Shown here: in pieces, positions 1,707-59,378 of the stretch
How positions within the stretch are numbered: the first letter of the stretch is position 1
How the letters are laid out: each line of letters begins with the position of its first letter
Source of the DNA: an uncultured candidatus Porisulfidus sp.
Lineage (GTDB): Bacteria > Pseudomonadota > Gammaproteobacteria > Poriferisulfidales > Poriferisulfidaceae
DNA length: 64,000 bases
Direction of reading: 5' to 3'
Assembly (NCBI GenBank): GCA_965116025.1
Contig: OZ220480.1
Coordinates: 1,248,001-1,312,000, forward strand
Translations under genes and position numbers: made by a program
Notes under the pieces: model-generated
Database searches by the model: none
Told to the model about the DNA's origin: nothing
The model's input: only the letters and a program-made list of their open reading frames with translations

Positions 1707-1830
1707 TGCGCATGAGCACGGAAATGGAGAGGAGAGAAGCGGGCGCCTCGAGCTCGCTTGATCAGATGAGGATGTTTTCCGATGATCAGGCCGCGGCGAG
1801 TTTCCTCAAGGATCCGTGCGGGGTGCCGAG
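1707..1830 (+). pseudogene. Possible remnant of an IS1595-family transposase N-terminus
   Basis: SSLDQMRMFSDDQAAASFL resembles the SL...F.DD.AA...F start of IS1595 transposases; zinc ribbon and DDE domain absent. Confidence 0.3.
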
Positions 1831-1908
1831 CGAGGCTCCATCGGTCAGGCCAAGCAGCTTTCGCTCGATCATGGTTGGCAAGTGGAGACCGTGCGAGAGC
1901 CGGCTGCT

Positions 1909-3132
1909 ATGAGCGTCAAGAATCGCACCATCTTCACGGGCGACTGCCTCGAGATCATGCGGGGCATGGCGGACGAGTGCGTCGACTTGATCTATCTGGA
2001 TCCACCGTTCAATAGCAACGCCAACTACGCCGCTCCGATCGGAAGCGAGGCGGCGGGCGCGGAATTCAAGGATACCTGGGGGCTGTCGGATATCGACCTC
2101 GCATGGTGGGGCGAGATTGAGGAAGGCTATCCCGCGCTATACAAGTTGCTCGCCGCCGCGCGCGAGACGCATTCCAAATCCATGATGGCGTACTTGATTT
2201 ACATGGCTGTGCGGGTCATTGAAATGAAACGGTTGCTGAAAGTCACTGGAAGCATCTATCTGCATTGCGACCAAACGGCCGGACATTACCTGAAACTCAT
2301 GTTAGACGCGATTTTCGGGAAGGCCAATTTCAGGAACGAGATCGTCTGGTGGTATCGCAGGTGGCCAGCGAAGCAAAAGAATTTCCAACGAATGCATGAC
2401 ACGATTTTTCGCTACTCGAATACAGGCGAGTGGGTTTGGAATCAGTTGTACGACGATCTCTCCGAATCGAGTCGGAAGATGTGGAAAGGAAAAGCGCGGG
2501 TTGATGTCACCAATGCGGAAGGGCGTAGGCATAGCGTAACCGGCGAGCAAGAATCTAAAGGCGTCCCAATGCGTGACGTTTGGGAGATCGCCGTTGTCCA
2601 TCCTGGTTCCAAGCAGAGCACTGGCTACCCCACGCAAAAACCCCTTGACCTGCTCCGCCGCATCGTCCAGGCGTCAAGCGACGAAGGCGACATGGTGCTG
2701 GATCCATTTTGCGGGTGCGCGACCGCTTGCGTGGCGGCGGAAGTTGAGCACCGTCAGTGGATAGGGATCGATGTCAGCGAAAAGGCTTACGAACTGGTGA
2801 AGGCGCGCTTGAAGCGCGAGGTCAATATTGGCAAGGGCGCGATGTTCGGCAAGGCGATCCACCGCACGGATATCCCGACCGACCGCGCTGGCAAGCGCTC
2901 CAAGGACATCAAGCACATGCTGTACGGACGGCAGGAAGGAGTGTGCGCAGGTTGCTTGCTATGGTTCCCGTTCCGAAACATGACGCTGGATCACAAGATC
3001 CCGCTCGCGAAGGGTGGCGCGGACACGGACGAAAACCTGCAGCTGCTCTGCGGAGCGTGCAATTCGAAGAAGGGTGGCCGCCCGATGGAAGAGCTGATCG
3101 CCGCGTTGACGGCGGAGGGAACGCGGCGGTAA
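1909..3132 (+). CDS. Beta-class N4/N6 DNA methyltransferase fused to a C-terminal HNH endonuclease
   Basis: GDCL, YLDPPF (motif IV) preceding YPTQKP and LDPFCG (motif I); C-terminal CAGC...DHKIPLAKGG..ENLQLLCGACNSKKG; likely ATG at 1909. Confidence 0.9.
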   Translation: MSVKNRTIFTGDCLEIMRGMADECVDLIYLDPPFNSNANYAAPIGSEAAGAEFKDTWGLSDIDLAWWGEIEEGYPALYKLLAAARETHSKSMMAYLIYMAVRVIEMKRLLKVTGSIYLHCDQTAGHYLKLMLDAIFGKANFRNEIVWWYRRWPAKQKNFQRMHDTIFRYSNTGEWVWNQLYDDLSESSRKMWKGKARVDVTNAEGRRHSVTGEQESKGVPMRDVWEIAVVHPGSKQSTGYPTQKPLDLLRRIVQASSDEGDMVLDPFCGCATACVAAEVEHRQWIGIDVSEKAYELVKARLKREVNIGKGAMFGKAIHRTDIPTDRAGKRSKDIKHMLYGRQEGVCAGCLLWFPFRNMTLDHKIPLAKGGADTDENLQLLCGACNSKKGGRPMEELIAALTAEGTRR

Positions 3133-4119: not shown

Positions 4120-4822
4120 GCTCGTTCTTCTGCTTGGCGCATGCCTGCTCGCGGTCGCGGCTTCCGCCGAAATGAGCGAGACGCAGCTTCGCGAGCGATT
4201 GCGGGAGTTGAACCCGGACCTTGCTCCCGACCGGATTCGTCCCGCCCCGGTGGCGGGTTTGCGCGAGGTTCTGTACGGGGGCCACGTCCTCTATATCACG
4301 ACCGACGGCAAGCATCTGTTCTCGGGCGGCGAGCTGATTGATCTGGACCGACGGATCAGCCTGACCGAGGTCTCCCGGTCCGCGGCCCGAGCGGAGCTGC
4401 TGGAAGCCTACGGCGCGGACAAGATGCTGGTCTTTCCAGCGACCGCTCCGCCGCGCCACGCCATCGTCGTGGTGACGGACATCGACTGTCCGTACTGCCA
4501 GAAATTCCATGAGCACATGAGGGAGCTCAACGCCGCGGGCGTGGAGGTCCGATATCTTCTGTATCCGCGGGCGGGCGTGGAGAGCGGCAGTTACGAGAAA
4601 TCCGTCAGCGTATGGTGCGCTTTGGACCGCCGGGACGCGTTGACCCGCGCCAAGCTCCAGGAGCCGATTCCGCCGAGGGCTTGCGCCAACCCGGTCGTCG
4701 AGCACATGGATCTGGTGGACAAGATCGGCGTCAGCTCGACGCCTTCCATATTTCTGCCGGATGGCGCGCTGGTTCGAGGCTACCGCCCGCCGGCGGAGCT
4801 TCTGGCGCTGTTGCTCGACTGA
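4112..4822 (+). CDS. dsbC: Thiol:disulfide isomerase DsbC
   Basis: Signal peptide from GTG 4112, TDIDCPYC active site, STP cis-Pro loop; xerD-dsbC synteny. Confidence 0.9.
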   Translation: MARLVLLLGACLLAVAASAEMSETQLRERLRELNPDLAPDRIRPAPVAGLREVLYGGHVLYITTDGKHLFSGGELIDLDRRISLTEVSRSAARAELLEAYGADKMLVFPATAPPRHAIVVVTDIDCPYCQKFHEHMRELNAAGVEVRYLLYPRAGVESGSYEKSVSVWCALDRRDALTRAKLQEPIPPRACANPVVEHMDLVDKIGVSSTPSIFLPDGALVRGYRPPAELLALLLD

Positions 4823-8251: not shown

Positions 8252-8337
8252 TGGTGCCGATGGCCGGACTCGAACCGGCACGGCTTTCGCCACTGCCCCC
8301 TCAAGACAGCGTGTCTACCAAATTCCACCACATCGGC
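8252..8337 (-). tRNA. tRNA-Leu(GAG)
   Basis: Reverse complement GCCGATG...TTGAGGG anticodon loop, long variable arm, GGTTCGAGTCC, ends CATCGGCACCA; lies after secG. Confidence 0.95.
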
Positions 8338-12865: not shown

Positions 12866-13031
12866 GCGCGCGCGCTCCGCGAGTCCAAGTCCGCCCAAGC
12901 GCTAGGATAGCAGATACCGCGCGCGGCGGCGAGGCTCGCGCCCCTCATAATAACGGATATGGGGGAGAGGGCGAGGAGTTCCAAGCCTGCCGCGAGCTTC
13001 CGCGAGATTTGGGAGCGCGCCGGCGTGGGTT

Positions 13032-13080
13032 TATAATGCCCGTCTATCTGAACGCTAGGACCTATCCCGTATAGGAGGAG
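13032..13080 (+). promoter_or_regulatory. Putative sigma70 -10 box and strong RBS of autotransporter 1
   Basis: TATAAT at 13032-13037; AGGAGGAG at 13073-13080, 4 nt before ATG 13085. Confidence 0.55.
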
Positions 13081-13084
13081 AATA

Positions 13085-16000
13085 ATGACCAAGAACCTTT
13101 CCGTTTTCGAGATTCGCGCCGCGCTTCGCGTCGCCTCGTCGTCTTCCCGCCTAGGGGGGGGGGGGGGGGGGGCATAGCCTCCGTTTCCTGACCGTTCTGG
13201 CCGGATTCACGGCCTTTCTCGCGGTTCCGCACTCCGCCGTCGCGGTGAACGAGTGCGGCGCTACCAGCCCGGTCACCTGCGGCGACGCGAGCTACGGCGG
13301 CAGCAGCGCCACTCCCACTCCCATCGAGTACACGGGTGAGACGGGGGGCCTGACGCTGACCGTGAGGCCTTCGGGAGAGATGACGACCATCAAGTCGTTC
13401 CTTCCTCCCGAGAATCCCGCCACCTCTCCCACCGATATCACCCAGGGCCGGAATTCCGGGATCGCCGTGATCGGCGCCGGGGCGCTGACGGTCCATCTGG
13501 AAAGCAAGGTGCGGATCGTGAACGAGGCCGGTGGGTGGGCTTCGCCCGTCCAGGCCACGTATACCACTGCTGGGCTCAGAGGGACCTTCATTGATCCCGA
13601 GTATGCTCGGGGTAGCAGAAACTACGGGATCTATGTCGGGAACGACCAAGCCGGCGACGCCAACAGAGCGGACAAGATCGAGATCGTGGTCGGGACCGAG
13701 ACAATGATCGGCGCTGATGACGCGCCCGTGGGGCTTTATGGCGTGATGGCGGAATACAGCCAAGATTCCGCTGATGGCGACGTGTCCATCGTGAACCGGG
13801 GCGAGATCTACGGGTACTACCGGGGAATCCACGTGCTTCATAAAGGCTCTGGAGACATCGCCGTCGAGACGGCGAAGGGCAGCGTGACCAGCAAGGGAAT
13901 CAATGTCCGCAACAGATCCGGGAAAGCGGGCGACATCACCATCACGAACCACGGGACGCTCACGAGCCTGAGGCAGTGGCCTCGCTACGCGAGCGCGATC
14001 TCGAGCGGGGTGGCCACGCTCCTTGATAATGACACGATTTTAGCTAGCGGCAACGACTTCACCCAAGACGGCATAAACGTCAACCATGAGGTCACGACCG
14101 CGCCGGCTTCCGGCGAGGATTCCAGCAGCGTGATCACGATCACCTCGAGCGGCGACATCACCGCCCTCAAGCATGCCATGGCCATCAGCACGTGGGGGAG
14201 CGACGATGCTTCGATCGTTCCGGTGATGATCGACGTGACGGGGGGCGTCCTCACGGCGGGCGATCGGAAAAAGACGCGTTATGGAGATGGGGTTTACGTT
14301 TATTCCGTCTACCACAAAGGCGGGCTCATCAAGGTGGACTTCGCCGGTGAGGTCGCCTGGACGGGGAGCGACGGGAAGGGGATCTACGTCTACCGATTCA
14401 GTTCGCCCGATCCCGATCCCGACGACCCGGTCAATCGGGACGTCGAGGTGACGCTGAAATCCGGCGCGCGGATTGGCGTGGACGGGGATGAGCCGACCAT
14501 AGCCAGGCACGGCGTCGAGATTAAGCAGGTCACCAGCGGGGGGACGATAAAGGTAGGCATCTCCGAGGGGGCGAGGATCGGGACCACGGAGACTCCGGTC
14601 GGCGGGTACGGCGCGTTCGCCCAGACCCTCAACTCTGATGACGGGAACGACATGACGATCACCAACGAGGGCTTCGTTCACGCGAGAGGCTCCGGACTGG
14701 TCGCTTGGAACTATGGCTGGGGAAACGCGGTGGTGAAGCACTTGGCGGGTAAGATCGTCGCGGGCGACGCGCCCAACCCGTTCGACGATCTGTTGGATGA
14801 TCACAAGACGGAGCTGGCGGACCTGAAGCCGCGGACGGCCGGCGTCTTCGCTTTCCACGGAGGCTCGAGACCCAAGACGCGCGATGGCGAGACGTTCGAC
14901 GGCAACGACCCCTCCACCTACGATGCCGAGATCGGGGAGATCGAGATCGAGTCGAAAGCGGACATCACGTCGAAGGGGGACGGGATTCTGGCCTACGTGA
15001 AGGACATGCAGGACACTCCGGGGCAGAGTCACGGCGCCGAGATGATCATCCCGATCACGATCAACGCGTCGGGCGGGATGATCACGGCGGACGGGCATGG
15101 GGTGCACGCGGAGACCGCCACCGTCTACGAGGACGAGGACGCGCCGAAAGCCGGGAAGATCAAGGTCACGGTGGGGGAGATGGCGACGATCCGAGCCAAG
15201 AAGGACGGCGTTCACGTCAAGGGCAAGCGGACGTTCGCCGCCAGCCACGCCCGGGCGGGGCAATACGACCAGACGGTCACGATCAACGGCAAGGTGTTGG
15301 GTGGCGACGGAGATTACGCCGGCGTTCGGATGGTGAAGGGCGGAACGCTGGTGGTCGGGCCGAAGGCGAAGGTGGAGGCTGCATCTGGAACCGCGGTGAA
15401 GTCGGACGGGGGGCTGACCATCACCATGAAGAAGGACGCGGTCGGACGCATTGGCTACGTCAAGGGGAAGATGCTCAACAGCGGAACGACGACTTTCGCG
15501 GGGGTGAAGGTGGACGGGGAATACATGCTCAGCCCGGGTCTCGAGACGCGCGGCGTGTACGACGTCTCCAGGGTCACCCTGAAGACGATCGAGGGCGGGC
15601 ACCAGTTCGAGGAATCGGGGCGGGCGTACCATGATCGGGCTCGAGTGTACGAGGCGTTGCCGTCGGTGCTGCTGGAGATGAGCGCTCCGGGCGGTCGTCA
15701 GGCGCGGCTGTCGGCGACGCGTGACGGCGGAGGGGTTTGGGCGCGAGTCATGGCGAGCGATGGCGAGCGCGAGGCGGAGACGTCCACGACGGCGATGGAC
15801 ACGACCGGACATGATTTGTCTTGGGACTTCGAGCGCTGGGGCGTGGAGACGGGCATCGTCGTTCCCACGGACCTGCCGGGCGTGACGCTGGGCGCGAGCG
15901 CGCATTACCGGGATGGCGAGGCGGACGTCAAGCGTGGCGGGAAGATCGATGTCTCGGGCGTGGGCGTCGGGGCTTCGGCGACTTGGCGAGGAGAGGACGG

Positions 16001-16532
16001 CTGGCACGCGGACGGGGAGCTCTCGTACACGCGTTTCGAGGACATTGACTTAAGTTCGGATGCGCGCGGGATGGTGGCGTCCGGTCTGGACGGAGACGGC
16101 CACGCGATCGGCGTGGAGGTCGGCAAGCGAATGGAGATGGACGGCATGACGGTGATCCCTCGTGGTGGGTTGACCTGGTCGTCGGTGGACATTGATGGCT
16201 TCGCCGACGTGTCGGGCGTTATGGGCAGCGGTCGGGTGGAGTCCAGTTCGGAGGACAGCCTCAAGGCGCGGGTCGGGGCGTTGCTGGAGAACGGCCAGAC
16301 GTACGCCTCATTGGACGTGGAGCATGAGCTCTCGGAGGATCGGGAGGTCATGGCGTCGGGAGAGCGCCTGCGCTCGGAGGCGGAATCGACGTGGGCGCGT
16401 TTGGGCGTCGGGGGCGTGATGGTCCTGGACGCGAAGGGGGAGTCGACGCTATCGGCGGACGCGCACTACGCGGCGTCGGGTGGCGATAATCACGATTATG
16501 GCGCGAGCGTCCTGCTGAAGGTTCGCTTCTGA
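13085..16532 (+). CDS. Autotransporter (type Va) surface protein 1, frameshifted at a poly-G tract
   Basis: ATG 13085 with RBS; 23 codons, G19, then HSLRFLTVLAGFTAFLAVPHSAVA signal-peptide end in frame with ORF 13245..16532; Gly/Thr/Val-rich beta-helix-like passenger; barrel ending LKVRF. Confidence 0.85.
13154..13172 (+). repeat. G19 homopolymer in the signal-peptide coding region
   Basis: Direct count of 19 G; out of frame, giving GCA TAG immediately after. Confidence 0.9.
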
Positions 16533-28868: not shown

Positions 28869-29887
28869 GGCCCGAACCGCTCCAGCCATCGCTCGGCGAT
28901 CTGGATGCTGTTGGTCGCGGCGCCCTTGCGCAGGTTGTCGCTGACGATCCAGAGGTCCAGTCCGCGCGGGTGGGACAAGTCCTGGCGGACGCGCCCGACG
29001 AACACCTCGTCGCGGCCGGCCGCCTCCGTCACCGCCGTGGGATAGCCGCCGTCCGCCATCTCGTCCACGACCACCACCCCGGGGGCGTCTTCCAACAACG
29101 CGCGCGCGGTCCGCGCGTCCAACGGCTCGCGGGTTTCCAGGTGCACGGCTTCGGAATGGCCGCGGTACACCGGCACGCGGACCGTGGTCGGGTTCACGCC
29201 AATGCTCTCGTCCTCCAGGATTTTCCGGGTCTCCCAGACCATTTTCATCTCCTCGCGGGTGTAGCCGTTTTCTTGGAAGCGGTCGATCTGCGGCAGGACG
29301 TTGAACGCGATCGGGCGCGGGTAGACCTCGCCGGGACTCTCGCGACCGTCGAGCGAGTCCGCCGTTTGCTGGTGAAGCTCTCGGATCGCGGCCTGCCCGG
29401 TGCCGGAGACCGCCTGGTACGTCGCGACGTTGACGCGCGCGACGCCGGCGGCGTCGTGCAGGGGCTTGAGCGCCACCACCATCTGGATGGTCGAGCAGTT
29501 GGGGTTGGCGATGATGCCACGGGCGCGCCAGTCGGCGATGCGTTCCAGGTTGCACTCCGGCACCACCAGCGGGACATCCGGCTCGTAGCGAAAGCAGGAC
29601 GTGTTGTCGACCACCAAGCAGCCGGCCTCGGCGGCGCGCGGCGCGAACTGGCGCGAGGGCTCGGAGCCCGCGGAGAACAGGGCGATCCGCGCCTGCCGAA
29701 AATCGAATTCCTCCAGCGCTTGGACCTCGATTTCCCGTCCGCGAAATGGCAGGCGCTGGCCCCGCGAGCGCTGGCTCGCCACCAGGTGCAGGGCGCCGAG
29801 CGGAAAGTCGCGCTCTTCCAGGACCCGGCGCATCACGTCGCCCACGGCGCCGGTGGCGCCGACGATCACCACGTCCGGGCCGCTCAT
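28865..29887 (-). CDS. asd: Aspartate-semialdehyde dehydrogenase
   Basis: [26 protein letters not shown]. Confidence 0.96.
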
Positions 29888-30966
29888 GGGCGCAGGCGCG
29901 CCTCCAGCGCGCGGGCCACCGCGTCTCCCATCCGCGCGGCGCCGACGGTCGCGCCGCCGTCCGCGAGGTCGGCGGTCCGGAGGCCTTGCCGCAAGACGTC
30001 GCGCGCGGCCTCCTCCACCGCGTCGGCGGCGTCGGCGCGGCGAAGGGAATGGCGCAGCATCATGCCGACCGACAGAATCATGGCGAGCGGGTTGGCTCGC
30101 CCGGTTCCGGCCAGCTCTGGCGCCGAGCCGTGCACTGGCTCATAAAGGCCCTGTCCCTTCTCGTTGAGCGAGGCCGAGGGCAGCAGGCCGATCGAGCCGG
30201 TCAGTTGCGCGGCGACGTCGGACAGGATGTCGCCGAACAGGTTGCCGGTGACGATCACGTCGAACTGGGCGGGGCGGGCGACGAGCTGCATGGCGGCGTT
30301 GTCCACGTAGAGGTGCGACAGCTCGATGTCCGGATAGTCGCGCGCGACCTCGCCGACCACCGCGCGCCACAGCTCGGAGACCTCAAGGACGTTGGCCTTG
30401 TCCACGGAGCAGACCCGCTTGCGCCGACTCCGCGCGGCCTCGAAGGCGACGCGCGCGACGCGCGCGATCTCGTCCTCGTCGTAGATCATGGTGTTCACGC
30501 CCCGCCGGCGGCCGTTTCGCTCGTCCAGCGAGCGCGGCTCGCCGAAGTAGAGCCCGCCGGTGAGCTCGCGCGCGATCAGAAGATCCATTCCCTCCAGCCG
30601 GTCAGGCTTGAGACTCGACGCATGCGCCATGCCCGGCATCAGCGTCGCGGGACGCAGGTTCGCGTACAGGCCGAGCTCCTTGCGCAACCGGAGCAGGCCG
30701 GTCTCGGGGCGCAGCGACCGGTTCGGCGTGTCGTGGCGCGGCGAGCCGACCGCCGCCAGCAGCACGGCGTCGGCGGCGCGGGCGGCGCGCAGGGTCTCGG
30801 GCGGCAGGGGATCACCCTCGGCGTCGACGGCCGCGCCCCCGATCAGCCCCTCTTCGATCTCCAGCGCGAGGCCGCCGTGGCGGACGAGACAATCTAGCGT
30901 CTTGCGCGCCTCGGCCATGATTTCCGGGCCGATGCCGTCGCCGGGCAGAAGCAGGACGCGCGACAT
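29884..30966 (-). CDS. leuB: 3-isopropylmalate dehydrogenase
   Basis: [36 protein letters not shown]; start ATG 30966. Confidence 0.97.
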
Positions 30967-34906: not shown

Positions 34907-35662
34907 TTACTTTTCGGGAAACTCAGGGCGATTCAATCGCAGTATCTCGACCCAGTCTGACCCGAATTGCACCCACTTGAGAACACGTTTCACCTCAAGC
35001 ACATTCTTAGGTTTTCGGGTGATACGAAAGCACGTAGCACCTTCCGGTATTGGCTCGATAATGGTGAACTGCGAACCATGTGGTTGCCAAGTAAAGACAT
35101 GTCGAGCTCCATCGTATCCCTCTAGGTTTTGACGGTTATTCACTTTCCACTGATAGTTGTTGACTACTATTGGGGTAATCGGGCACTCAAAAATGGTGAA
35201 TTCTTGTGTTTCCATGTTTCTTGCCAAAGCCACAAGCCGCGTATCTTTATGATCCGATTTAGCCTTCTCAATCCGGTTGTTGTAAATGTCCAGCACAGAT
35301 TGTCCTGTAGCCTGAACGTTAGCGAAAGGATCATTGATGCCGGACGAGTATGACGGACTGTTGCGCCCGCTTATCAATCTGATAGTTTTCGCTTTGTGGG
35401 GATTGTTGTTCTTGACTGTTTTGACGGACCAGCAACAGCCGTTCCATGCAACATCAGCAATCCCAATAGGTCTCTCGAAAGATACCCCGGAAATGGAATC
35501 AGCGAATATTTGGCTCCATTCGTCGCCAGTCATATCGATCCTGCCCAAGGCTTTCAGGTGGACGATTCGCCCGCAAATTTCTTCAATAACCGAATCTGGA
35601 AATTCGTTTATGGGATAAGGCTCATGTTTCGTGACTCCGTCCCGCGTCTTGACTTGCCGCAC
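34907..35662 (-). CDS. Probable type II restriction endonuclease
   Basis: Lower-GC ORF overlapping the end of a C5 MTase; ADV...WSVKT fits a PD-(D/E)xK-like site; specificity unknown. Confidence 0.6.
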   Translation of the reverse strand: MRQVKTRDGVTKHEPYPINEFPDSVIEEICGRIVHLKALGRIDMTGDEWSQIFADSISGVSFERPIGIADVAWNGCCWSVKTVKNNNPHKAKTIRLISGRNSPSYSSGINDPFANVQATGQSVLDIYNNRIEKAKSDHKDTRLVALARNMETQEFTIFECPITPIVVNNYQWKVNNRQNLEGYDGARHVFTWQPHGSQFTIIEPIPEGATCFRITRKPKNVLEVKRVLKWVQFGSDWVEILRLNRPEFPEK

Positions 35663-36605
35663 TCATCACCTCCCGAATTACTGCTCGCACCATCGGAACG
35701 GGTACGGCATTTCCTGTTTGCTTCCGTATTTGTGCATCATTGCAAACATTCTTGAAACTCTCTGGAAAGCCCTGCAGGCGCAATTGCTCGCGTGGCGTTA
35801 GCCTGCGCTCACCATTAACTAGCAGGTAATTGTAACTGGCGTTCGCGCGCAGGGCACAGGAATATGGGTGAGAGCTGATATTGCCGCCCTTGTTCTCGTG
35901 CCATACTGAAGGCGTGACTTTGGGCGTGTGGTCCGCCCATCGCTTGCTCTTGATTCTCGCGCTTACGTAGTAGCGTTTTTCTGGATTTTTCTCTAGTATT
36001 CGCGCTAGCGGCGCGCGCTTCGCGCTAATATCAGGCCATTGATAGCGGTCAATGGCATCGCTGTCCTGAAATCCGACCAGTATGATTCGCTCTCGCTTTT
36101 GCGGCAAGCCGAAATCCAGGGCGTTCAGGATGCGCCACTCGCAATCGTAGCCTAGCGAGGCGAGACCTCGCGAAATCTCTTTGAGCGGCTTGCCTTGGGC
36201 TATGGTGGCGAACTGGCGCACGTTCTCCAAAACTAAAGCTCTTGGCCGCTTGGTGTCGAGCACGCGCAAGATTTCATGGAACAGCGTTCCTCGCTTGTCG
36301 CGCAGGCCATTCATGTCGCCAATGATCGAGAAAGGCTGGCAGGGAAAGCCTGCGAAAAGAATGTCGTGATCCGGCACGTCCTCCGCATTGACCCGGGTGA
36401 TGTCGGCCGCTGGGTCGATGCCGAAGTTTTCCCGGTACTGCTCTCGGCACGAGTCGTCGATATCGCAAGCGAATACGCACCGTAGTCCCAAGTCGTGAGC
36501 GGCTAGGTGAAACCCGCCAATCCCGCAGAACAGGTCCGCGAACGTTTCTATGCTCGCGCTCACTGGTGCCTCGGAGATATCTGGCTGAATTTTCAACTCA
36601 GTCAT
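35622..36605 (-). CDS. DNA (cytosine-5) methyltransferase
   Basis: DLFCGIGG, GFPCQPFS, ENV, PQKRER, RLQGFP, GNAV. Confidence 0.95.
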   Translation of the reverse strand: MTELKIQPDISEAPVSASIETFADLFCGIGGFHLAAHDLGLRCVFACDIDDSCREQYRENFGIDPAADITRVNAEDVPDHDILFAGFPCQPFSIIGDMNGLRDKRGTLFHEILRVLDTKRPRALVLENVRQFATIAQGKPLKEISRGLASLGYDCEWRILNALDFGLPQKRERIILVGFQDSDAIDRYQWPDISAKRAPLARILEKNPEKRYYVSARIKSKRWADHTPKVTPSVWHENKGGNISSHPYSCALRANASYNYLLVNGERRLTPREQLRLQGFPESFKNVCNDAQIRKQTGNAVPVPMVRAVIREVMSAASQDAGRSHET

Positions 36606-37568
36606 TCCTCCACTCCTCGTGCTGGGGACTCTACCAGCAGATTCGTGACGAGATGAATCATCGCATTCTTGCTCTTTGGCGCGCTCTCGGCGATCAACAG
36701 CGTGAGCGCGGTCAACGTCCGGGCATCAAGGCGGTGCTCCATGCCTTCCTGCGCCAAGTAGAGCAGGAATAGGAGAGCGCCGATCCGCTTGTTGCCATCG
36801 GTGAAAGGGTGGTCCTTGACGATGAAGTAAAGAAGGTGCGCTGCCTTCTCCTCACGGCTACGGTAGAGCGATTCGCCCAGCATGGTCTGCTCAATGCTCG
36901 CGAGGATGGACTCCAAGGCATTGTCTTGTTGCTTGCCGAAGAGCGACGATGCCTCGCCTCTCGTCGCGAGATCGCGTTTCAACGTCTCAATCGCGTGGAC
37001 CGCGCGGTCCGCGTCAAGTGCGCCAATCGCCGGTTGCGCGCTGGACGGTTTGTCCAGCCGGTTCTCGTCGTATTCTAGAAGAAGGCGCCATGTGCTAGCG
37101 TAGCCCGCGATAAGGTCGAGGGCGACCTTGTCGGTGGTGTTCATCAGCGGCTGGTTCCGTAGGGTTGGGGCCAGGCGACCAAGCGTTTCGCCAATCACCG
37201 CTCGTTCAGCGTATGGCCGCGGGCGAAATGCTCGCGTAGCAGATGGATCGCCCATTGTCGGAAGTGTGCGCCGCGTTCCGATTAACTCGGTCGCTGACGA
37301 AAATAAGAGCACTTAGGGTGTCGTGCCAGACGCAACGCTGGACCCTCCTCTCGCCTTCAGTTTGCCCTACCAAAAAACCCTCGGTTGTTGCTCCAGTAAA
37401 CCACCCGCTATCGCCGCAAATATTTTTCAGATGAAGCCCCACGTTATCGGCTGACGTATCAAACTCCTCCGCCATTTGACACCGCGTTAGCCAGATGCTC
37501 TCGCGTTCTAAGCGCGAACCCACTCGCGCGTCACCGCCTAGACTTGCGATCAGGATATCACCAGTCAT
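36602..37568 (-). pseudogene. RhuM-Fic/DOC fusion, frameshifted
   Basis: N-terminal IWLT..MAE.FDTSADNVGLHLKNI..QTEG (RhuM-like) in ORF 37206..37568; Fic motif HPFTDGNKRIG in a different frame (36602..37312). Confidence 0.75.
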
Positions 37569-37659
37569 GGGGGCTCGCTTTATCGCTCCAAAGCCCGACG
37601 GCCAGAGCGAGGATGAACGCCCCGACCATCGACACGATCACGATGTCCGCGTCCGTCAT
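37558..37659 (-). CDS. 33-aa single-TM small protein, not in ORF track
   Basis: MTDADIVIVSMVGAFILALAVGLWSDKASPHDW*; ATG overlaps the TGA of the upstream ORF (ATGA). Confidence 0.45.
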   Translation of the reverse strand: MTDADIVIVSMVGAFILALAVGLWSDKASPHDW

Positions 37660-38057
37660 GGAGTAGGGCAGGCGATCTTCTGTTCATATCGGAGACATTC
37701 GAGTAGGATCGCCCCCGGCGGCTCCACACAGCCCGCGTCCACAATCTCCGGGGCGTTCCGCCAATTCGCCACGCCCTGTTCTCTACATAACTGTTTCATC
37801 TCCTTCTCGTAATACCTGGTGGAACCCAAGTAGTAACGAAATCCGGCTCCTGTTTCGTAGTGAGAACGCGTTGGCCAGATTTCCCTACGGATCATCACGG
37901 GACCGAATAGCCAATACCGCTTTCCGATTATCTTCGTATGGACGGACGGGGTATCGTCGTGAACATGTCTAGGCTCGATGTCGCTACCTTTCCGCCACGG
38001 ATGCGCTCCCGCGCTCCCCGCGACCGAGACGGCCAAAGCGAATAGCAACGCTCTCAT
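37656..38057 (-). CDS. Hypothetical secreted protein
   Basis: Signal peptide MRALLFALAVSVAGSAGA, four Cys in C-terminal part, ATGA overlaps at both ends. Confidence 0.6.
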   Translation of the reverse strand: MRALLFALAVSVAGSAGAHPWRKGSDIEPRHVHDDTPSVHTKIIGKRYWLFGPVMIRREIWPTRSHYETGAGFRYYLGSTRYYEKEMKQLCREQGVANWRNAPEIVDAGCVEPPGAILLECLRYEQKIACPTP

Positions 38058-38232
38058 TTTGCGTCTTCCCGCGTTGCCAGTTTCGCGACTGCATCGAGGA
38101 GATATCGGATCAGTTGATCGTATGAGAGAGACGCGACGGGGTGGCCTTGCTCCCGCGCCGCGTCTCTGGCCTCCGATAGGCTTTTCATGTCTTGTCCGAG
38201 ACGCGGATCGTCTTGTACGTTCGTTTCTTCAT
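38054..38232 (-). pseudogene. Frameshifted ribbon-helix-helix-like small protein
   Basis: GGGAGA RBS, MKKRTYKTIRVSDKT then a 1-nt shift to KSLSEARDAAREQGHPVASLSYDQLIRYLLDAVAKLATREDAK*; stop overlaps next ATG. Confidence 0.45.
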
Positions 38233-38243
38233 GCAGTCTCCCG

Positions 38244-38627
38244 TCAATGTAGCATGCTTGGGCAGAAGGCAGGGGAGTCGGGATAATTCCGTTCGAGGAT
38301 GTCCTCCTCCTCCTCCCGTTCGATGGCCTTGCTCTCCTCGTCTGTCAGGTACAAAGCGCAGACGCGACCAAGCGCGCGCGACAGATGATATTCGAGATTA
38401 AAGTTCCGATCGGACGCGCGCTCCCACTCCAAGTCGTCCTCAATAGTGTCCGCGATCCCGCGAACAACGTAGTCCGTCACGTCCATGTCGTCGCGCATCT
38501 TCGCTTCCGCGTGCGCCTTTCCCCACGCCTCGAACGAGGCCTCGATGTCCGCCTTCAACTTCCGATTCCAAACGGGATCGTCTGGCTTGGCCGTCGCAAG
38601 TCGTTTCCAATCTCTATCTGTCATCAT
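38244..38627 (-). CDS. Hypothetical acidic protein
   Basis: GGAGA RBS upstream, natural-looking composition, first ORF of a co-directional run. Confidence 0.6.
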   Translation of the reverse strand: MMTDRDWKRLATAKPDDPVWNRKLKADIEASFEAWGKAHAEAKMRDDMDVTDYVVRGIADTIEDDLEWERASDRNFNLEYHLSRALGRVCALYLTDEESKAIEREEEEDILERNYPDSPAFCPSMLH

Positions 38628-38808
38628 GTCATCGTCTCCAAAATCGAGAGGGGGAACGGCTCAAACATTTCCCCTCCCAGTGTAGCGGCTAGTCCTTCGT
38701 CGAACGTCCATCCTCACGCGGCCATGCGTTCCGCACCGGTTCTCCGTCAACCTGTTTCCGCTCGTTTGGCATAGTTACCGCCATCATAATACAGCCTCGA
38801 ATTATTTA

Positions 38809-40275
38809 GTCGTTGCTGAAGTATCCGCCTCCGGTCATGCGGGACGGAGAGAAAATCGCCTCGAGAGGCCGAGCGTCCGGCCTCGGAGGAGAAATTCCCG
38901 GAATTTTCTCCAGGCGCGGGAAAACCCGGCCAGAAGCTTGGCGAAGTTGTACCCGGCCGCCGCCAGAACCGCGTTGGCGCGGTCGCCGGAGCGGCCTTTC
39001 AGCCGATTCCGATGCAGCCGGTGATCCGATTTCAGATGGCCGATGGTCGGCTCGATCGCCGCCCGCCGCTTCATCCACTTCCGCGCCGTTCGGGTCGCCG
39101 TCTTCGGGATCTTCCCCACCACATGCGCCCGCGTCTCTCCCGACACCCCGTGCCCCCGATACCCCTGGTCGCAGTAGACCCGCTTCGGCCGCTGGCCCGC
39201 CAGCCGCTCGATCCGCTCCAGCGCGGCGGCCAGCGTGTGCCCGTCATACGGGTTCCCCGCCAGACTCATCGCCGACACCAGCCAGTTCCCCTTCGAGGTC
39301 GTCGCGAACGAGACCTTGCACCCGAACTCGTAACGCCGATGCGGCTTGCCCTTGGCGACGCGCTCCACCTCCGGCGCATGCACGCTGTACAGCTTGCCCT
39401 TGTCCTCGCGCTTCTGTTTCAGCAGGCGCTCGGATCGCTCCAGCAGCGTCTCCAGCGCCGCGTCCGGGCTCGGAACCTTCCGCCGAATGTCCCGCACCAC
39501 CCGCCCGAGCATGGTCTTCAAGGCGCGCGTCTGGCGCGCCGCGCGCTTCATCTGGCGCGCGTACCCATAACGCCCGCACAGGATCAGCGCCTTCTTCCCG
39601 ACCCGCTGGTAGCTCTGCCGCAGAGCCACGCCGCGCTTCCGCGCCTCCCGAACCAGCGCCGCCCGCGCCTTGTGATACAGCCGCGCGTCGGTCGGGAACG
39701 CCACCGCCTTCTCCTGCACCGTCGTGTCCACGTTCACCCGCTCCAGCTCGCGCGCGCCCATGAGCCCTTCCCGCCGCGCCACCCGGATCGTCTGCGTCAG
39801 CAAGCAGTCCAGGCGCTCCCCCACTCGCTCGCGCCAGCGCGTCATGCTGCTCGAGTGCAGAGGCGCCTTCATCTGCATGCGCTCATAACCGCAGAACGCC
39901 TGCCAGTACGGGTTCTGCCGCCAGATCTCGACCACCCGCTCGTCGCTCATGTCATGCGCGTACTTCAGAAAGTGGAGACCCGCCATCAGCCGGGTCGGCA
40001 ACGGCGGCTGTCCTGGTCCAGGAGCGTGCAGGCCGCCGAGCTCCTCCTCCATCTCCTCCCAGTCGATCTTCTCGCCCAGAATCAGCAGGGGCTCCTTCGG
40101 GTCCAGCATCTGGGACAGGCGGGCGCGGAACAGGTCGGCGTGAGTATCGGGCTTCTTCGGTTTCATGTTTCGCAAGGAATCGGCGCTCAAGCGCGGGAAA
40201 ACTTGCGATGCAGCATACCCGAAAACTGATTCTATGTCAAGTGATTCAAACAGTTAGGAATACTTCAGCAACGAC
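38809..40275 (-). mobile_element. IS5-family (IS1478-like) insertion sequence, 1467 bp
   Basis: Perfect 16-bp terminal IRs GTCGTTGCTGAAGTAT (38809-38824 / 40260-40275) flanked by direct repeat TATTTA (38803-38808 / 40276-40281). Confidence 0.92.
38835..40166 (-). CDS. IS5-family DDE transposase
   Basis: NPYWQAFCG, VDTTVQEKAVAFPTD, YEFGCKVS, NPYDG, DQGYRG, RAAIEPTIGHLK; likely start ATG 40166. Confidence 0.93.
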   Translation of the reverse strand: MKPKKPDTHADLFRARLSQMLDPKEPLLILGEKIDWEEMEEELGGLHAPGPGQPPLPTRLMAGLHFLKYAHDMSDERVVEIWRQNPYWQAFCGYERMQMKAPLHSSSMTRWRERVGERLDCLLTQTIRVARREGLMGARELERVNVDTTVQEKAVAFPTDARLYHKARAALVREARKRGVALRQSYQRVGKKALILCGRYGYARQMKRAARQTRALKTMLGRVVRDIRRKVPSPDAALETLLERSERLLKQKREDKGKLYSVHAPEVERVAKGKPHRRYEFGCKVSFATTSKGNWLVSAMSLAGNPYDGHTLAAALERIERLAGQRPKRVYCDQGYRGHGVSGETRAHVVGKIPKTATRTARKWMKRRAAIEPTIGHLKSDHRLHRNRLKGRSGDRANAVLAAAGYNFAKLLAGFSRAWRKFREFLLRGRTLGLSRRFSLRPA

Positions 40276-45886: not shown

Positions 45887-46019
45887 GCTACTAGGGATTC
45901 CTGAAAGTTGGATGGCTTCAGGCACCTTGGGCTGATCCTTAGGGTTTTGTCTTGCCTGACTTCGATTGCTGCAGCTATTGGCTTTTTTTTTTCGCTGCAC
46001 ATTTCTGGCTGATGTCTAG

Positions 46020-52472: not shown

Positions 52473-55400
52473 ATGACCAAGAGCCTTTCCGTTTTCGAGA
52501 TTCGCGCCGCGCTTCGCGGGGCCTCGTCGTCTTCCTGCATAGGGGGGGGGGGGGGGGGGGGGGGGGCATAGCCTCCGTTTCCTGACCGTTCTGGCCGGAT
52601 TCACGGCCTTTCTCGCGGTTCCGCACACCGCCGTCGCGGTAGATGAGTGCGGTGCTACCAGCGCGGTCACCTGCGGCGACGCGAGTTACACGTCCACCAG
52701 CGACTCCCCGATCAAGTATCAGGATAAGACCGGGGGTCTGACCTTGACCGTGAAGCCTACCGGGGCGGGCACGGTCACCATCACCGCCTCGGCGCTTCCC
52801 ACGAGCGCGAGCGCGGCGTTCCCGGGGATCCACCTGAACGGACACGGAACCCTGAAAGTCGTTCTGGATGGCGCCGTGAAAGTCGTGAACGGGGCGACCC
52901 GTACGACGGTGGAGGCCACGTTTGGGGACGGGAAGGAGACGTTCATCGACCCGGCTTACAAGCGCGGCTCGCAAAACGACGGGGTGTACGTGGCGTACGA
53001 CAAGGACGACGAGACGGCGACGGGCATGGTGGAGGTGATGGTGGGGAAGGACGCGATGATCGGGAGCGCGACGGCGCCGGCGGGACGGTACGGGGTTCAC
53101 GCCGCGTTCGTGGACGCGGACGGCGGCGGTACCAATTATCCGGCCGGGAAGATCAAGGTGACGAACGCGGGGGAGGTTTACGGACATTACGCGGGGATTT
53201 ACGCGAAGCACGAAGGAAAGGGCGATATCGAGATCGAGACGTTGGAGGGGAGCGTGACGTCGATGGGGATCCGGGCGATCTCGAACACGGATGATCGGAA
53301 CGGTCGGGGCGGGAATATCACCATTCGTCATCATGGCACGATCATGGTCAAGAATCCGGTTCGGTACGCGAAGCTGATCACGGCGGGCGTGGCCACGCCG
53401 CTGGATGAAGACTTGGCGACCAGCAGTAGCCGGAACAGAGGCGGGATATTCGTTTGGCATCGAGACAAGACGAGGAACACCGTCGCGAAGGAGGTCAGCA
53501 GCTCGATCCTGATCGAGTCGAGCGGCGACATCGATGTCGTCGCCGATCCGGTGCATAGCATTGACGTGAACGGGATCATGGTGGTGACGTATGGGAACGA
53601 AAATCCCAACGAAAATTCCGTGGTTCCGGTGACGGTCGACGTGACGGGAGGGACGATCACGGCGGGCGACCAGGGAGGAACCAAGCCGGGGTCTGGAGTT
53701 TACGTTTATTCCTATGGTCACGCCGGCGGGCTCATCAAGGTGGACTTCGCGGGCGAGATCGCCCGGACGGGCGGTGCGGGAGACGGGATCCGCATTTACC
53801 ATGAAAGCGATATCGCCGATGTCAATGGGGATGTCGAGGTGACGCTGAAGTCCGGGGCGCGGATCGGGATGGAGGGGGACGAGCCGACCGTGGGCCGGCA
53901 TGGCGTGTCGGTTGATCAGAGAGTTGATGGCGGGGCGACCAAGGTGACGGTTTCCGAAGGGGCGCGGATCGGAACCGAGGGGACTCCGGTCGGCGGGCAC
54001 GGCGTGTACGCCATATCCGACTCCCCTGACGATGAGGGCGCCATCACGATCACCAACGAGGGCTTCATCCACGCGAAGGGCTCGGGAGTGGCCACCTTGC
54101 ATCTGGGCTGGGACGATATGGTCGTGATGCACCTGAAAGGGGAGATCGTCGCGGGCGACGGGCCCGATATCCTTGATCCGTTCAAGGGGGATGACAAGAC
54201 GAAGCTGGCGGACCTGAAAGGCAGGACCGCCGGCATCCTCGCCGTTCATTTGAGCTCGCAGCCCAAGCCGCTTCCCGGCAAGAGTATCAGCAATACCGAT
54301 CCCTCCACCTACGAGTCCGACATTGGGGAGATCAAGATCACGTCGAAGGCGGACATCACGTCGAAGGGCGACGGGATTCTCGCCTACGTGAAAGACTTTG
54401 ACGATGTGGGGGCCAGGAGCCCCAAGATGAGAGTCCCGATCACGATCGACGTTGCGGGCGGGACGATCACGGCGGACGGGCATGGCGTCTACGCGGAGAC
54501 GGCCACCATCTACCAGGGCACCTACGCGGGGACGGAGACCACCTACGACGACGCGACGAAAGCCGGGAGGATCGAGGTCACGGTAGGCGAGATGGCGACG
54601 ATCCGGGCCAAGAAGGACGGGGTGCATGTCAAGGGGATGCGGACGTTCGCGTCCGACCACGCCAGGAAGGGGCAATACGACCAGACGGTCACCATCAACG
54701 GCAAGGTGATGGGCGGCGCTGGCGAGCATGCTGGCGTTCGGATGGTGAATGGCGGGACGCTGGTGATCGGGCCGAAGGCGGAGATCGGCGCGATGTCGGG
54801 GATCGCGGTGAGCGCGGACAAGGCGCTGCAGGTCACTCTGAAGGAGAACGAGCATGGGCAGATCGCGTTCGTCATGGGGAAATTCCTGAACAGTGGAGAG
54901 GACGCGCCGAACGTCTTCCAGCGCGAGTCGACGGCCGGCATGGCGAAGACGATAGCCGTGGGGGACGCGGTGAAGGCGACGTCGGGGAAGACGGGGACGC
55001 ATGGGGTGTATGACGCGGTGTTCGAGCGGATGGTCACGCTGAAGTCGATCACGGGGGGGCACCAGTTCGAGGCGGGCGCGGAGAAGGAGATCAGCCGGAC
55101 GTACCATGCCCGGGCTCGGGTGTACGAGGCGTTGCCGTCGGTGCTGCTGGAGATGAGCGCGCCGGGTGGTCGTCAGGCGCGTTTGTCGGCGACGCGAGAC
55201 GGCGGGGGCGCGTGGGCTCGGGTCTTGGCGAGCGACGGCGAGCGGGAGGCGGATATGTCCACGACGGAGATGGACGATGCGGGTCGCGCGCTGTCTTGGG
55301 ACTTCGAGCGCTGGGGCGTGGAGACGGGCTTCGTCGTTCCCACGGACGCGCCGGGGCTGATGCTGGGCGTGAGCGCGCATTACCGCGACGGCGAGGCGGA

Positions 55401-56019: not shown

Positions 56020-56065
56020 CGCGGCCCCGGCGTTCAAGCCGGGGCCGCGCGCCTTTTCTTATTTC
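56020..56065 (+). terminator. Rho-independent terminator after autotransporter 2
   Basis: 12-bp stem identical to that at 16545, GTTCAA loop, followed by CCTTTTCTTATTT. Confidence 0.75.

Positions 56066-59301: not shown

Positions 59302-59378
<77 letters not shown>

Follow-up and report, generated by a model that had tools for sequence, protein, structure and literature searches.

Long poly-G tracts in the signal-peptide code of two autotransporter genes of an uncultured candidatus Porisulfidus sp.: probable phase variation within a 23-gene family

Introduction

Surface-protein genes that carry a repeat able to shift their reading frame have been described in Neisseria, Chlamydia, Campylobacter, Gardnerella and Bifidobacterium. 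Here we compare with these systems two autotransporter genes of an uncultured candidatus Porisulfidus sp. (Gammaproteobacteria; Poriferisulfidales; Poriferisulfidaceae), in which an uninterrupted run of G parts the start codon and leader from the putative signal-peptide core. Both genes lie in one stretch of 64 kb (64.2% G+C; assembly GCA_965116025.1, contig OZ220480.1, positions 1,248,001 to 1,312,000 of the forward strand), called the window below, from whose first base all coordinates are counted; the locus with a tract of 19 G is named AT1 and that with a tract of 25 G is named AT2.

The opa genes of Neisseria resemble this family in that the repeat lies in the code for a cleaved leader and the outer-membrane paralogues switch independently, but their repeat is a pentamer rather than a homopolymer, their products are not autotransporters and the two families share no sequence relationship. 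Opa proteins are small 8-strand barrels. The opa repeat is reported as CTCTT units within the region coding for the leader peptide (PMC3960869; summarized in bioRxiv 10.1101/2020.09.16.300947). PmpG of Chlamydia, like the family described here, is an expanded autotransporter family with long G/C tracts in a small genome; tracts of 8–19 G (polyG) and 13–24 C (polyC) are reported, many copies being frameshifted and standing among intact ones on the tree (PMC6740158). In contrast to the family described here, however, most Pmp tracts are found within the passenger, with hundreds of bases between them and either end, and the proteins carry Pmp repeats and come from a different phylum. Campylobacter capD/CapA is likewise an autotransporter with poly-G in its coding sequence, and the position of the tract is described as conserved across the genus (PMC7168839), but the tracts, given there as about G4 to G10 or more, are shorter, and one or a few genes occur per genome.

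Nearest in the placement of the tract are nanH3 of Gardnerella and the pilin genes of Bifidobacterium breve, in which a homopolymer beside the region coding for the signal peptide stands between the export signal and the rest of the protein. For nanH3, an out-of-frame tract is reported to cost the annotated protein its signal peptide (bioRxiv 10.1101/2020.09.16.300947), and mixed tract lengths within cultures are reported for both nanH3 and the B. breve pilins (PMC9187656; bioRxiv 10.1101/2020.09.16.300947). These, unlike AT1 and AT2, are Gram-positive cell-wall proteins encoded at single loci, with tracts of 8–14. Finally, type V secreted proteins with an extended signal peptide region (ESPR) share with this family a long signal peptide (about 55 residues for AT1 and AT2 if read in frame) whose N-terminal extension precedes the n-h-c unit, but the Pfam ESPR profile hit none of six in-frame family members. 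The ESPR motif is also unrelated to the leader sequence found here. Our literature searches on autotransporters with homopolymeric or poly-G phase variation turned up no description of the AT1/AT2 family. The mechanism that we propose is a textbook one; the family is notable for the length of its tracts (16–25) and for its size.

Results

Two long G tracts, each following a 23-codon leader

The G19 and G25 tracts (Table 1) are the only runs of G or C longer than seven in the window, where run-length counts gave 15 runs of length six and two of length seven; a word of 12 G is expected 0.03 times from dinucleotide-preserving shuffles, versus 22 overlapping occurrences found, every one of them within the two tracts. 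In both loci the tract starts 69 nt (23 codons) from an ATG, at 52473 in AT2 and 13085 in AT1. The two leaders, MTKSLSVFEIRAALRGASSSSCI in AT2 and MTKNLSVFEIRAALRVASSSSRL in AT1, are alike at 64 of 69 nt and 19 of 23 residues, the first 60 nt 3′ of the tract are identical, and a 23-nt word taken from just after the tract has these two sites as its only occurrences in the window with up to three mismatches allowed. The sole other homopolymer of at least eight in the window is a T10 run (45983–45992) in the gap after pgsA.

Read from its own ATG, AT2 encodes MTKSLSVFEIRAALRGASSSSCI, eight glycines, an alanine and a stop, a peptide of 32 residues, and AT1 encodes MTKNLSVFEIRAALRVASSSSRL, six glycines, an alanine and a stop (TAG at 13175–13177), a peptide of 30 residues; both leader frames finish GGG GCA TAG. 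The frames that begin with the first base after the tract are open, to 56007 in AT2 (1146 codons) and to 16532 in AT1 (1119 codons). Because the leader frames stop at GCA TAG and the post-tract frames are open, both bodies lie at +1 to their own ATG and both tracts have lengths of 3n+1, and AT1 and AT2 are both OFF in the assembled sequence. These readings agree with the original prediction, made from the sequence of the window by itself, which had pointed to near-identical 23-codon leaders, to tracts of G25 and G19 at the same codon position, and to a shared 3n+1 register ending in GCA TAG. Internal re-initiation 3′ of the tract was considered for the window copies and rejected: the body frame has no ATG, GTG or TTG before 52744 in AT2 and 13245 in AT1, both past the hydrophobic core. 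The +2 frame in both loci contains a stop, with no start codon just upstream.

A predicted split signal peptide and a classical autotransporter translocator

The AT2 body opens with HSLR-FLTVLAGFTAFLAV-PHTAVA|VDECG, that is, with a basic residue, a hydrophobic core and a small-x-small site. Kyte-Doolittle means over nine residues reach 1.5–2.2 across the core, and AVA|VDE is the probable cleavage-type site under the −3/−1 rule. Core and AVA|V site occur in the body frame, and the assembled register joins neither of them to a start codon; in four of the 23 paralogues described below, the core is joined to the start codon of the leader. Judged by these motifs, the tract would split a long signal peptide, parting the start codon and a 23-residue extension from an export-competent core.

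Downstream of the predicted signal peptide, both bodies match the autotransporter beta-domain PF03797 (AT2, 6.7e-28, residues 899–1113; AT1, 6.6e-28), and the Pfam scan of the two bodies returned no other family. The two proteins are 60% identical over 1172 columns. We modelled the AT2 body with AlphaFold2 from an alignment of 17 family proteins, out of 36 close ones; the model (mean pLDDT 75.7, pTM 0.69) has many short strands, a helix at 848–864 (P0001 numbering) and then twelve long strands, and Foldseek matched it in the PDB to the barrels of EstA, EspP, BrkA, NalP and AIDA-I (E 1.5e-9 to 1.7e-7). As modelled, AT2 therefore has the linker helix followed by a C-terminal 12-strand barrel that defines a classical (type Va) translocator.

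The passenger is harder to place. It is modelled as short repeated strands, with pLDDT mostly 75–97, and C28 and C36 are invariant across the 17-sequence alignment, but it had no PDB sequence match at E ≤ 0.01 and no Pfam match, and because of this the label ‘adhesin’ is an assumption. An Atlas feature search, in which every hit scored below 0.9, brought up pectate-lyase-like and pertactin clusters at only 0.82–0.88, which we take as leads only.

Twenty-three paralogues in mixed registers

Among about 5.8 billion proteins searched for homologues there were 49 hits. Of these, 23 are 57–100% identical, and for each of them the same single contig of 2,018,984 bp is reported; the window's own proteins, P0003 (AT2) and P0019 (AT1), are among them. 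These 23 paralogues presumably share one genome, and their annotated residues, 25,428 in total, correspond to at least 76 kb, or 3.8% of the contig.

In four paralogues the leader, a poly-Gly stretch and HSLRF are annotated in one frame: P0006 (5 Gly), P0009 (7), P0020 (7) and P0021 (8), with the AT2-type leader joined to the body in P0009 and P0021. The annotation of P0004 also reads through the tract. Its pre-tract stretch, ...FRFQYRPRRASRGSVVFPHRGGGGGG, was compared with the +2-frame translations of the window leaders; the residues ...FRFQYRPRRASRGSVVFPHR that precede its tract match that +2 reading, and its body is therefore at +2. Eighteen of the 23, both window copies included, are annotated from starts at or after the tract. 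As the +2 frame of both window loci meets a stop and offers no start codon just upstream, N-terminal annotation cannot separate +1 from +2 in such copies. Among the paralogues whose register could be read, four are in frame, two (those of the window) are at +1 and one is at +2. Tract length and register thus differ among homologous copies (19 versus 25 G; 5, 7, 7 and 8 Gly; P0004 in another frame), a difference between paralogues and not between cells.

We built a quick maximum-likelihood tree from the last 700 residues of 31 proteins, the 23 paralogues and eight relatives from other genomes, excluding P0030, P0032, P0033 and all more distant hits. The paralogues form one clade with 100% support, in which AT1 and AT2 fall in separate subclades. 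Four changes of state are needed to place the in-frame condition on the 23 leaves, and the four in-frame copies are therefore scattered rather than clustered. Leader ORFs annotated by themselves would reveal an OFF register, but a search for shorter annotated proteins matching residues 1–60 of P0009 found none at E ≤ 10 among 82 candidates.

Two further members from the same genome, P0024 and P0028, are annotated from MSRFLTV at the position of the tract, where other copies read HSLRFLTV after it. As annotated, these two would own a short but complete signal peptide, and if the start is real and the G run is Shine–Dalgarno-like, their expression could be independent of tract length.

Poly-Gly at the same site in other genomes

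Eleven relatives come from other assemblies (43–58% identity); four of these (P0022, P0029, P0031, P0035) have 6–8 Gly between the leader and the core, and seven start later. Searching genome contigs with a profile of the 17 sequences gave 16 loci of metagenome-assembled genomes (MAGs; 32–40% identity), none from the genome of the window, of which L013, in a MAG of 6.0 Mb, is the only one to span a gene start; there an in-frame G16 (2794–2809) stands between MENPAMLREREGNIRHRSCGI and the hydrophobic core. The same region of L013 (2731–3900) holds two tandem autotransporter genes, the second of which bears this G16 in its leader, and at another of the loci, L012, a G12 (4281–4292) lies within a Gly/Pro-rich repeat of the passenger-linker region.

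A profile was also run against 1.84 billion cluster representatives (50%), giving 1532 hits at E ≤ 0.001. The best 150 were inspected and included 144 new proteins, seven with at least four Gly in their first 150 residues; in six of these, G4–G7 stands just before the hydrophobic core, and in the seventh, P0120, it is within the passenger. This tally is an undercount, because copies that are out of frame are annotated without the tract. Poly-Gly at the equivalent position in other assemblies makes the tract a trait of the clade rather than an accident of assembly. A poly-G artefact of two-colour sequencing chemistry was rejected as well, as poly-Gly stands at the matching site both in the paralogues and in other assemblies. 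The Pfam ESPR model gave no hit at E ≤ 0.1 in six of six in-frame proteins (P0006, P0009, P0020, P0021, P0029, P0031), and no Pmp repeat motif was found by Pfam, which returned PF03797 alone plus OMP_b-brl in two relatives.

Selection on the bodies and conservation of the 5′ ends

Comparison of AT1 with AT2 gives a dN/dS of 0.47 over 1093 aligned codons and of 0.17–0.31 in the barrel, a GC3 of 0.83–0.84, and a single interruption per window copy, exactly at the tract. By these measures the two genes appear intact and not decaying. Conservation is far stronger at their 5′ ends: the 43 codons that flank the tract (23 of the leader and 20 after it; 13085–13232 in AT1, 52473–52626 in AT2) have one synonymous difference in 35.4 sites, versus 0.40 per site gene-wide, and by our own arithmetic the chance of so few differences is about 1e-7. 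This points to gene conversion among the paralogues, or to constraint at the nucleotide level, as a probable influence on the 5′ end of these genes.

Discussion

A proposed slipped-strand switch in the leader

We consider it likely that AT1 and AT2 undergo independent slipped-strand phase variation as members of a 23-gene family, by means of a translational switch in the cleaved leader. As in a contingency locus, the repeat stands at a frame-critical point, with G19 or G25 after the leader and ahead of the signal-peptide core. Under the mechanism we propose, a hypermutable poly-G tract parts the translation start and leader of a type Va gene from the rest of its signal peptide, and strand slippage during replication would change the length of the tract at high frequency. 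Only lengths that keep the frame would yield the start codon, the full signal peptide (leader, poly-Gly, HSLR and core), the passenger and the barrel as one product. In the other registers the ribosome would halt after 30–32 residues or, in the third register, slightly later, and the out-of-frame body, which has no start of its own before the hydrophobic core, would not be exported. Since the tract lies in the part that would be cleaved off, changes by whole codons would merely alter a poly-Gly spacer, at no cost to the mature protein. With 23 genes flipping independently, the outcome would be a shifting mix of surface proteins, which presumably act on a host or a surface. The original prediction had suggested a family of independently switching adhesin genes mostly held OFF, and the family is consistent with this: among 23 paralogues just four are annotated in one frame, and these occupy four separate places in the tree. 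It had also argued from homologous flanks that the tracts are real, which the identical 60-nt 3′ flanks, the 64/69-nt leaders, and the poly-Gly of paralogues and of independently assembled relatives confirm.

Several points weigh against this proposal. Each protein of the family is represented by one member sequence on one contig, and the variation in length is thus seen between paralogues only. Registers beyond the window were read from annotated protein N-termini, from which they could be inferred for seven of the 23 paralogues; for the other 16 the annotation gives no register. The number in frame (4 of 23) is below the one-third expected at random, although not significantly (binomial P = 0.076). 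Tracts of 19–25 G are, moreover, near the upper limit of length for documented switches, and other processes may therefore contribute.

Readings that could accompany switching

Of the alternatives, we give most weight to one in which the register comes from the assembly: the real or predominant lengths may not be 19 and 25, whether through miscalled homopolymers or through the consensus of a mixed population, which would make the OFF call unreliable. The single 2.0-Mb contig suggests long-read assembly, and there are precedents for caution. In B. breve, error-corrected data are reported to give G11 in about 37% and G12 in about 60% where the database has G11, and the authors advise caution over G-tract lengths in databases (PMC9187656), as does the preprint on nanH3 (bioRxiv 10.1101/2020.09.16.300947). 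We regard this as possible but on balance unlikely. It would leave the tracts themselves in place, positioned as they are by the poly-Gly of independently assembled relatives, and it is compatible with slipped-strand switching rather than opposed to it.

A somewhat more doubtful possibility is a leaky OFF state, in which RNA polymerase slippage on runs of 19–25 nt would give some in-frame transcripts from any allele, and hence a low-level mosaic on top of switching in the DNA. Both G19 and G25 far exceed the RNA–DNA hybrid of the transcription complex. Known cases of slippage are, however, mostly on A or T runs, and no feature of the sequence demands it here. Transcriptional slippage on homopolymers is otherwise described as an established route of expression (PMC3711429).

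The unit of leader, G tract and signal peptide spans a range from this 2-Mb genome of 64% G+C to a 6-Mb MAG of 70% G+C. It is conceivable, though we think it improbable, that this unit is an old portable 5′ cassette of a proteobacterial autotransporter clade, kept uniform within the genome by gene conversion, and that its tracts of 17–25 G, unstable in both DNA and RNA, would make the 23 genes a constantly reshuffled and partly leaky mosaic and not a set of binary switches.

Readings that would replace switching

The remaining readings would do without slipped-strand switching. That the G run acts chiefly through structure, as a DNA or mRNA G-quadruplex modulating transcription, translation or recombination, is very unlikely. 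The original prediction had raised quadruplex formation, and this part stands as far as an energy model goes: with quadruplexes allowed, the 5′ region as folded by ViennaRNA drops in minimum free energy from −71.6 kcal/mol to −119.4 kcal/mol for G25 (five layers) and from −68.7 kcal/mol to −100.0 kcal/mol for G19 (four layers). Such output is, however, expected of any long G run, nothing here shows a function for the structure, and a structural role would leave unexplained both the frame-critical position in coding sequence and the in-frame poly-Gly of the paralogues.

Still more improbable is programmed recoding, in which the genes would be fixed out of frame by +1 and expressed when, on the G run, ribosomes shift by +1 or transcription realigns in a defined way. 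AT1 and AT2 are both 3n+1 and both read GGG GCA TAG, and a run of GGG codons permits perfect re-pairing of tRNA-Gly in any frame. In an RF2-type site, however, the stop directly adjoins the slippery codon, whereas here GCA stands between the last GGG and TAG. The original prediction had linked a programmed +1 mechanism to a tally of registers across the paralogues, and that tally, with four in frame, two at +1 and one at +2, speaks against it: the frame transition is not conserved, and the L013 relative, too, is in frame. Two loci in an equal register are a one-in-three event, a caveat that the prediction itself had entered and that holds; the shared 3n+1 register of AT1 and AT2 is best read as chance.

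Equally improbable is that the family consists of decaying pseudogenes with permanent frameshifts, for although 18 of the 23 annotated proteins lack a complete N-terminus and decay of a lineage-specific kind, rather than phase variation, is the reported conclusion for Campylobacter capC (PMC7168839), each window copy has one lesion, at the tract, with more than 1100 open codons beyond it, the barrel is under purifying selection, and synonymous change at the tract flanks is held far below the gene-wide level.

Flanking elements and surroundings in the window

The coordinates of the features of AT1 and AT2 are collected in Table 1. The TATAAT upstream of AT2 aligns with that of the promoter-like element of AT1, but the promoter scan, given its poor −35, did not call it.

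Table 1. Features of the AT1 and AT2 loci, in coordinates of the 64-kb window.
Feature	Position	Strand	Basis or remark
AT1 promoter-like element, TTGGGA-17-TATAAT	13009–13037	+	10/12 consensus matches; consensus match only
AT1 leader (MTKNLSVFEIRAALRVASSSSRL)	13085–13153	+	Direct reading and leader comparison
AT1 G19 homopolymer tract	13154–13172	+	Direct reading and run-length count
AT1 body in +1 frame: putative signal-peptide core, passenger, autotransporter barrel	13173–16532	+	Open frame, Pfam
AT2 TATAAT, 57 nt 5′ of the start, overlapping the gloB stop codon	52411–52416	+	Possible −10, weak evidence
AT2 leader, ATG plus 22 codons (MTKSLSVFEIRAALRGASSSSCI)	52473–52541	+	Putative N-terminal extension of a long signal peptide
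AT2 G25 homopolymer tract	52542–52566	+	Proposed slipped-strand switch; codes for poly-Gly if in frame
AT2 start of body: HSLR, hydrophobic core FLTVLAGFTAFLAV, PHTAVA	52567–52638	+	Predicted signal-peptide h- and c-regions
AT2 leader-frame TAG	52569–52571	+	Ends the leader in the assembled 3n+1 register
AT2 passenger	52639–55107	+	Begins VDECG...TC; all-beta, short strands
AT2 linker helix, 12-strand beta-barrel translocator and stop codon	55108–56007	+	PF03797, model, Foldseek
Intrinsic-terminator-like hairpin after AT2, 12 G-C pairs and T-rich tail	56020–56049	+	Strong hairpin

Elsewhere in the window, the best NCBIfam matches of neighbouring genes are typical of Gammaproteobacteria (LpxH, GlnS, the FimV/HubP core and DsbC). 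Between 59302 and 63999, beside a tRNA-Met gene (59302–59378), are open reading frames (ORFs) of lower GC3 that encode an ATPase of the AAA_21/AAA_15 type with DUF3696, a DUF6361 protein, a product whose match is weak and PLD-like, and a small unknown one, and this region looks like a defence-type island inserted at the tRNA gene. A mobile or defence cluster on the minus strand (34910–40190) contains a cytosine-5 DNA methyltransferase (35625–36605), a Fic/Doc-family protein (36605–37312) and an IS5-family transposase (38838–40190), as well as several ORFs with no family match. Near the start of the window, an N6/N4 DNA methyltransferase is fused to a C-terminal HNH nuclease domain (1816–3129). 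ARAGORN called tRNA-Leu(GAG) at 8252–8337 and tRNA-Ser(GGA) at 29846–29937, and an Rfam scan at the gathering threshold gave the tRNA at 59302 alone; the tRNA-Ser(GGA) call overlaps the 3′ end of a long leuB ORF as listed.

Implications

No new principle is involved, the mechanism being a textbook one; these loci are of value for cataloguing the family and for the unusual length of their tracts. There is also a warning for annotation: gene callers restart downstream of the tract, so that 18 of the 23 proteins are deposited in N-terminally truncated form and lack a signal peptide, and predictions of localization and counts of family members that draw on such truncated records will be wrong. For the organism itself, apparently represented by a single genome, the 23 genes, which take up at least 76 kb and about 3.8% of a small genome, would amount to a bank of stochastically expressed surface proteins, which points to a host- or surface-associated life under changing selection.

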